Of a DNA stretch of 64,000 nucleotides, positions 46,805 through 46,881 are shown piece by piece; within the stretch, counting starts at the first letter, position 1; each line of letters opens with the position of its first letter. Where the stretch lies: NCBI RefSeq assembly GCF_055900595.2, contig NZ_CM148325.1, one strand, 5' to 3'. The position numbers were made by a program, and so were the translations under genes. The notes beneath the pieces were generated by a model. The model did not search any database and had not been told where the DNA came from. It was given only the letters and a program-made list of their open reading frames with translations.

Positions 46805-46818
46805 TTGCGCGAAATCAA
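46805..46818 (-). promoter_or_regulatory. FNR site of the fdnG promoter
   Basis: Minus-strand TTGAT-TTCG-CGCAA (consensus TTGAT-N4-ATCAA), about 65-78 bp upstream of the fdnG start codon. Confidence 0.6.
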
Positions 46819-46865
46819 AAAGAACACTTGTTTGCCACAAAATAATCCGCCTGCGCAAATTGACC

Positions 46866-46881
46866 TACCTCAATAGCGGTA
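46866..46881 (-). promoter_or_regulatory. Candidate NarL 7-2-7 heptamer pair upstream of fdnG
   Basis: Minus-strand TACCGCT-AT-TGAGGTA approximates TACYYMT-NN-AKRRGTA; lies about 60 bp upstream of the FNR site. Confidence 0.4.

Follow-up and report, generated by a model that had tools for sequence, protein, structure and literature searches.

The FNR and NarL sites of the E. coli fdnG promoter are already known, and the region described here is this textbook control region, re-identified. For fdnG, footprinting, mutagenesis, and mapping of the start site are reportedly contained in Li & Stewart (1992), Li/Kustu/Stewart (1994), Darwin et al. (1996), and Wang & Gunsalus (2003), the last three of which are also said to describe protection of the 7-2-7 site by phosphorylated NarL/NarP and the loss of nitrate induction upon its mutation. 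In the published numbering, the FNR site of E. coli fdnG is centered at -42.5 and the NarL heptamers lie at -77, -100, -109, and -124 (PMC3349551, citing Darwin, Li & Stewart 1996). Published comparative and methods papers name Fnr, NarL, and NarP as regulators of fdn, and list fdnG among the genes with a 7-2-7 site; fdnG is absent as text from the MotifAdjuster supplements. Occupancy by FNR in vivo and activation by FNR and nitrate are reported in published data as well. Between yddG and fdnG, ChIP-seq shows an FNR peak; fdnG itself is counted among the genes that FNR activates with nitrate, and also among those that NarL activates. FNR binding is seen without nitrate too, a condition under which FNR does not activate fdnG. 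In ChIP-chip experiments, the Fnr signal-to-noise ratio at fdnG goes from 6.2 in fermentation to 106.7 with nitrate, and the gene is scored as "Activation, Known". A first-pass annotation of the present DNA had invoked an anaerobic, nitrate-induced control of fdn, which agrees with the published FNR-dependent and nitrate-dependent activation and with the FNR ChIP peaks covering the region.

The window, i.e. the whole stretch of 64,000 nucleotides that was analyzed, is part of an E. coli chromosome, with fdnG on the minus strand and yddG divergent from it across a 231-bp intergenic region. The fdnG control region contains FNR and NarL/NarP motifs, both located where the first-pass annotation had put them. 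The 501 bp around the motifs match, at 100% identity, RefSeq E. coli chromosomes in which fdnG and yddG are annotated, and out of 5426 complete E. coli genomes 5413 contain the region. Translation from the ATG at 46740 gives MDVSRRQFFK as the FdnG N-terminus, and this start (MDVSRRQFFKICAGG) is a twin-arginine signal. The SECIS_3 element identified by Rfam directly behind the in-frame TGA confirms selenocysteine decoding at fdnG codon 196. The block comprising the Shine-Dalgarno sequence and the ATG is kept across the aligned upstream regions of the phylogenetic footprint. The support for the fdnG start that the motifs had been taken to provide is borne out, the layout of the control region confirming this start as well as the window's annotation. 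Alignment with K-12 MG1655 indicates that every regulatory element is identical base for base, the three substitutions between the two sequences all residing in spacers between sites (at approximately -84 and at -58/-57) and none within a site. Because all elements are identical, results obtained with K-12 transfer directly to the window. For the sites, the sequence, exact geometry, identity with K-12, and conservation in the Enterobacteriaceae are established here, and the region is very probably the control region of fdnGHI (formate dehydrogenase-N), a sigma-70 promoter needing FNR and NarL as activators. The coordinates of its elements are collected in Table 1. Rfam also reports a match to the Hfq-binding sRNA STnc490 (146 bits, 41964..42087, minus strand) directly 3' of fdnI, which may derive from the 3' end of the fdn operon.

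Table 1. Features of the fdnG control region and of the flanking genes (window coordinates; negative numbers are relative to the putative fdnG start)
Feature	Position	Strand	Remarks
fdnG CDS	43693..46740, 3048 nt	-	ATG at 46740; ORF listing, translation, and RefSeq annotation of the identical region
SECIS_3 (Rfam)	46100..46158	-	directly behind the fdnG in-frame TGA
fdnG Sec codon TGA	46155..46153	-	in-frame, codon 196
fdnG Shine-Dalgarno AGAGGA	46753..46748	-	6-7 nt before ATG
fdnG transcription start (A), putative	46769	-	sole position fitting all five published positions; 29-nt leader
Extended -10 TGtTAGTTT	46778..46786; TG 46786-46785, TAGTTT 46783-46778	-	1.71 bits per position, 48 diverged sequences
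Proximal FNR site TTGATTTCGCGCAA	46805..46818, center 46811.5 = -42.5	-	8/10 to consensus, 10.3 bits, conserved half-sites
NarL heptamer-like TAATCCG	46843..46849, center -77	+	5/7; within conserved block 46838..46848
Second FNR-like site TTGAGGTAGGTCAA	46860..46873, center 46866.5 = -97.5	-	15.7 bits; overlaps the -100 NarL heptamer
NarL/NarP 7-2-7 TACCGCT-AT-TGAGGTA	46866..46881	-	heptamer centers 46878 (-109) and 46869 (-100); 12/14
NarL heptamer-like CACCACT	46890..46896, center -124	+	5/7; 0.35 bits per position outside Escherichia (not conserved)
yddG	46972..47853	+	divergent from fdnG; ATG at 46972

When the proximal FNR site is set at -42.5, the two heptamers recognized by the first-pass annotation fall at exactly -109 and -100, and heptamer-like sequences (5/7) occur in the same register at exactly -77 and -124. 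From the published numbering we infer that fdnG transcription starts at 46769, which corresponds to position 1547372 of NC_000913.3 in the alignment with K-12. The Cappable-seq TSS tables have no entry at K-12 positions 1547369-1547374, a result to be expected of a gene that is silent in aerobic culture. In nearly all loci, the extended -10 element (TGnTAGTTT) follows the first T of the FNR site at a constant 32 bp. From the center of the FNR site downstream to where the -10 hexamer begins there are 28.5 bp, a class II placement that is constant in nearly all 81 sequences. With the start so deduced, the -42.5 position also corresponds to a class II site, for which a center at about -41.5 and an overlap with the -35 region are expected. 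A scan of 46600-47100 for consensus sigma-70 promoters with two hexamers did not return any promoter, an expected and uninformative null result for an extended -10 promoter that needs an activator and has a poor -35. The first-pass annotation did not include the -77 and -124 heptamers, the extended -10, or an FNR-like site at -97.5.

For the phylogenetic footprint, 80 loci encoding FdnG orthologues (88-100% amino-acid identity) were taken from one scan of a genome collection, spanning Escherichia to Buttiauxella; the divergent yddG is present in 73 of them. The paralogue FdoG, presumably ~76% identical to FdnG, would fall well below this identity range. Information contents refer to the 48 sequences sharing <85% identity, and the flanking columns of the footprint reach 0.35-0.5 bits. 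At the proximal FNR position, TTGAT-TTCG-CGCAA is read on the minus strand from 46818 to 46805, and the span 46805-46881 attributed to the two motifs is exact. The site is real, although the term "near-consensus" that had been applied to it is generous, with 8 out of 10 matches to TTGAT-N4-ATCAA and 10.3 bits. The FNR matrix was derived from 62 ChIP-bound sites (Myers et al. 2013, Table S6; fdnG's own row omitted), and matrix scoring, which had been suggested as a check, places the proximal site below all training sites (minimum 11.5 bits). Ten positions of the window score at least as high, vs 6.0 expected, and the FNR pattern with at most two mismatches matches 58 times vs 44 +/- 6 expected from shuffles of the 64 kb. 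The ChIP-bound site of hcp (TTGATTTAGCGCAA; Myers et al. 2013, Table S6) has the same CGCAA half-site. Across the family, the half-sites TTGAT and (C/T)xCAA are retained in 81 out of 81 sequences (2.0 and 1.9 bits per position in the 48 sequences <85% identical), while the two central spacer bases vary. The non-consensus right half CGCAA (46805..46809 in the window) occurs in ~70 of the 81 sequences, in which the site scores 10.5-11.3 bits, and a stronger CTCAA is found in a few species. Judged from these sequences, the family-wide CGCAA suggests selection for a weak proximal FNR site, such that FNR alone would be insufficient and nitrate would be needed.

Upstream of this site, TACCGCT-AT-TGAGGTA had been described as approximating the NarL 7-2-7 arrangement about 60 bp away. 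It matches TACYYMT-NN-AKRRGTA at 12 out of 14 positions (46881..46866), and the distance measured from center to center is 62 bp. Its heptamers are inverted, 2 bp apart, and each matches at 6 out of 7 positions. The 7-2-7 pattern with at most two mismatches matches seven times in the window vs 3.8 +/- 2.1 expected, and NarL-like heptamers occur in the intergenic region at chance density, with no enrichment. Across the other loci, the 16-mer at the same 62-bp offset matches at 10 or more of the 14 positions in 72 out of 79 sequences (mean 11.1 vs a background of 5.1), and in 63 loci it surpasses all other 16-mers of the respective 250 bp; the site is displaced by 1 bp in Salmonella and one other. 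The outer TA ends are almost invariant across the alignment, while the sequence varies by genus (e.g. TAACCCTAAAGGATTA and TACCCCCTTATGGGTA), yielding the family consensus TAMYYCY-WW-RGGRKTA with ~1.1 bits per position.

Given match counts near the shuffled expectation in the window and the null scan for a consensus promoter, it might be argued that the motifs are functionless chance matches and that the real promoter is located elsewhere. This is scarcely credible: the invariant half-sites, the -10, and the 7-2-7 are held at fixed spacing in ~48 diverged sequences, vs flanks of 0.35-0.5 bits, the layout reproduces the five published positions exactly, and ChIP peaks cover the region. Chance matching was therefore rejected on conservation and literature. 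The sites are credible because of their position, the published numbering, and their conservation, and not because of their motif score.

Conservation of the accessory heptamers is uneven. The -77 heptamer-like sequence is embedded in a block (GGATTATTTTG, 46838..46848, minus strand) displaying 1.29 bits per position vs ~0.4-0.5 in its flanks, and hence conserved on a par with the 7-2-7 heptamers (~1.1 bits). This block reads GACTATTWAG in most other genera, a family consensus from which E. coli deviates, and NarL may not alone account for its conservation. The leader of fdnG also carries a perfect NarL heptamer, TACCCCT (7/7; 46758..46764, minus strand), centered at +9. Perfect heptamers are expected by chance ~0.23 times in the intergenic region, and the +9 heptamer is not conserved beyond Escherichia. 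Between the -10 and the Shine-Dalgarno sequence, the Citrobacter and Salmonella loci (L007-L023, L031, and L033) exhibit an insertion of ~55 nt with internal inverted repeats; Escherichia, Enterobacter, and Klebsiella lack this 5' leader insertion.

The divergent arrangement raises the question of whether the 7-2-7, and perhaps also the -97.5 FNR-like site, serve yddG in addition to fdnG or instead of it. A conserved extended -10-like element, TGcTATAAA (46920..46928, plus strand), is indeed found upstream of the yddG ATG at 46972, the block around it (46919..46928) reaching 1.2 bits per position across genera. A yddG start predicted near 46935 would place the center of the 7-2-7 near -61.5, and the yddG-fdnG pairing is kept with a spacing of ~220-230 bp in 73 of the 80 loci. 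However, this yddG start is a prediction, the literature returned no evidence for control of yddG by nitrate or FNR, and three loci devoid of yddG (L063, L075, and L076) retain the 7-2-7 at its fdnG-relative offset. A role of these sites at yddG is unlikely. Federowicz 2014 reports an ArcA-type motif (TAGCATTTTTTTAAC, 46924..46910, minus strand) over the yddG -10-like element; Tables S5 and S6 of that study apparently contain the same list of ArcA-type motifs, and were excluded as evidence for FNR motifs.

The strongest FNR-like sequence of the region is located further upstream, at -97.5. With 15.7 bits, it has the top FNR-matrix score of the 64-kb window, vs a chance expectation of 0.18 such sites. 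It is also the only fdnG site above the threshold in Table S6 of Myers 2013 (U00096.2 position 1545292, corresponding to window position 46873), where it is the predicted FNR site of the yddG/fdnG ChIP-seq peak. The center of this peak, at 1545309 or window position ~46856, is separated from the -97.5 site by 10 bp, as against 44 bp for the -42.5 site, and the -97.5 site best explains the position of the peak. Escherichia is the only genus among the 80 loci with an FNR-like site at this position (in E. coli, E. albertii, and a cryptic clade); its half-sites are invariant there while the spacer and the flanking bases vary. The TTGA half-site is created by the T at 46872, at a heptamer position occupied by A or G in most genera and by T in 4 of the 48 sequences.

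One might ask whether FNR acts in E. coli chiefly through the -97.5 site, the -42.5 site being secondary, as the score of the former (15.7 vs 10.3 bits, the best in 64 kb), its standing as the sole fdnG site above the Table S6 threshold, the 10 bp that separate it from the ChIP-seq peak center, and its half-sites, invariant in Escherichia including E. albertii, would invite. Yet it is missing from this position in all genera other than Escherichia, which retain the -42.5 site together with the -10 and the 7-2-7. Furthermore, -97.5 is not a class II position, the published numbering puts the site for anaerobic induction at -42.5, and FNR is bound without nitrate while fdnG is not activated then, which is unlike an activating site. 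Such a primary role is very unlikely, and the -97.5 site was rejected as the sole activating FNR site on phylogeny and position. The literature searched assigns no role to the -97.5 FNR-like site, and the search for ChIP-exo data on fdnG returned none. As a tentative and rather unlikely possibility, a strong FNR site superimposed on a NarL heptamer only in Escherichia could allow FNR to keep the promoter silent or poised without nitrate, in the manner of the upstream FNR of yfiD, phosphorylated NarL displacing or re-positioning it, so that part of the nitrate induction would be anti-repression through competition between FNR and NarL. In the two Pseudocitrobacter loci, an independent FNR-like site, 50 bp further upstream than the proximal one, abuts the right heptamer of the 7-2-7 (TTAATGAAAATCAA, 14.2 bits, in L070; TTAACGAAAGTCAA, 10.3 bits, in L069). 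It possibly parallels the -97.5 site of Escherichia.

As for the mechanism, FNR, active only without oxygen, would bind the weak -42.5 site overlapping the -35 region and activate RNA polymerase in a class II manner at the extended -10 TGnTAGTTT. Nitrate would be sensed by NarX, leading to phosphorylated NarL, a dimer of which would occupy the inverted heptamers at -109 and -100, with the accessory heptamers at -77 and -124, and bring about a strong rise in transcription; NarP could take the same 7-2-7 site. The proximal FNR site would be deliberately weak, making FNR alone insufficient and nitrate necessary. Two residual points go with this known architecture, namely the family-wide weakness of the proximal FNR site and the Escherichia-specific FNR site over a NarL site.

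Compared with described promoters, the closest system is the fdnG region of E. coli K-12 itself, which has the same gene pair, spacing, elements, and numbering as the window. The promoters of narG, napF, nirB, nrfA, yeaR, and ogt likewise combine a class II FNR site with NarL/NarP heptamers, the 7-2-7 being the high-affinity form. Among them, narG is devoid of a 7-2-7 and uses IHF, in contrast to fdnG, which possesses a 7-2-7. The fdnG 7-2-7 is centered far upstream, at -104.5, whereas those of napF and yeaR are at ~-44 and those of ogt at -44.5 and -77.5. Regarding the tandem FNR-type sites, the nearest likeness is yfiD, in which FNR sites at -40.5 and -93.5, both included in Table S6 of Myers 2013, are arranged similarly to the two FNR-type sites of fdnG (~53-55 bp apart), and upstream-bound FNR suppresses activation by the proximal FNR. 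The two promoters differ, however, in that the upstream site of fdnG is a candidate by sequence and overlaps a NarL heptamer, which yfiD lacks, and in that the 55-bp spacing of fdnG deviates from the phasing of yfiD by roughly a quarter turn of the helix.
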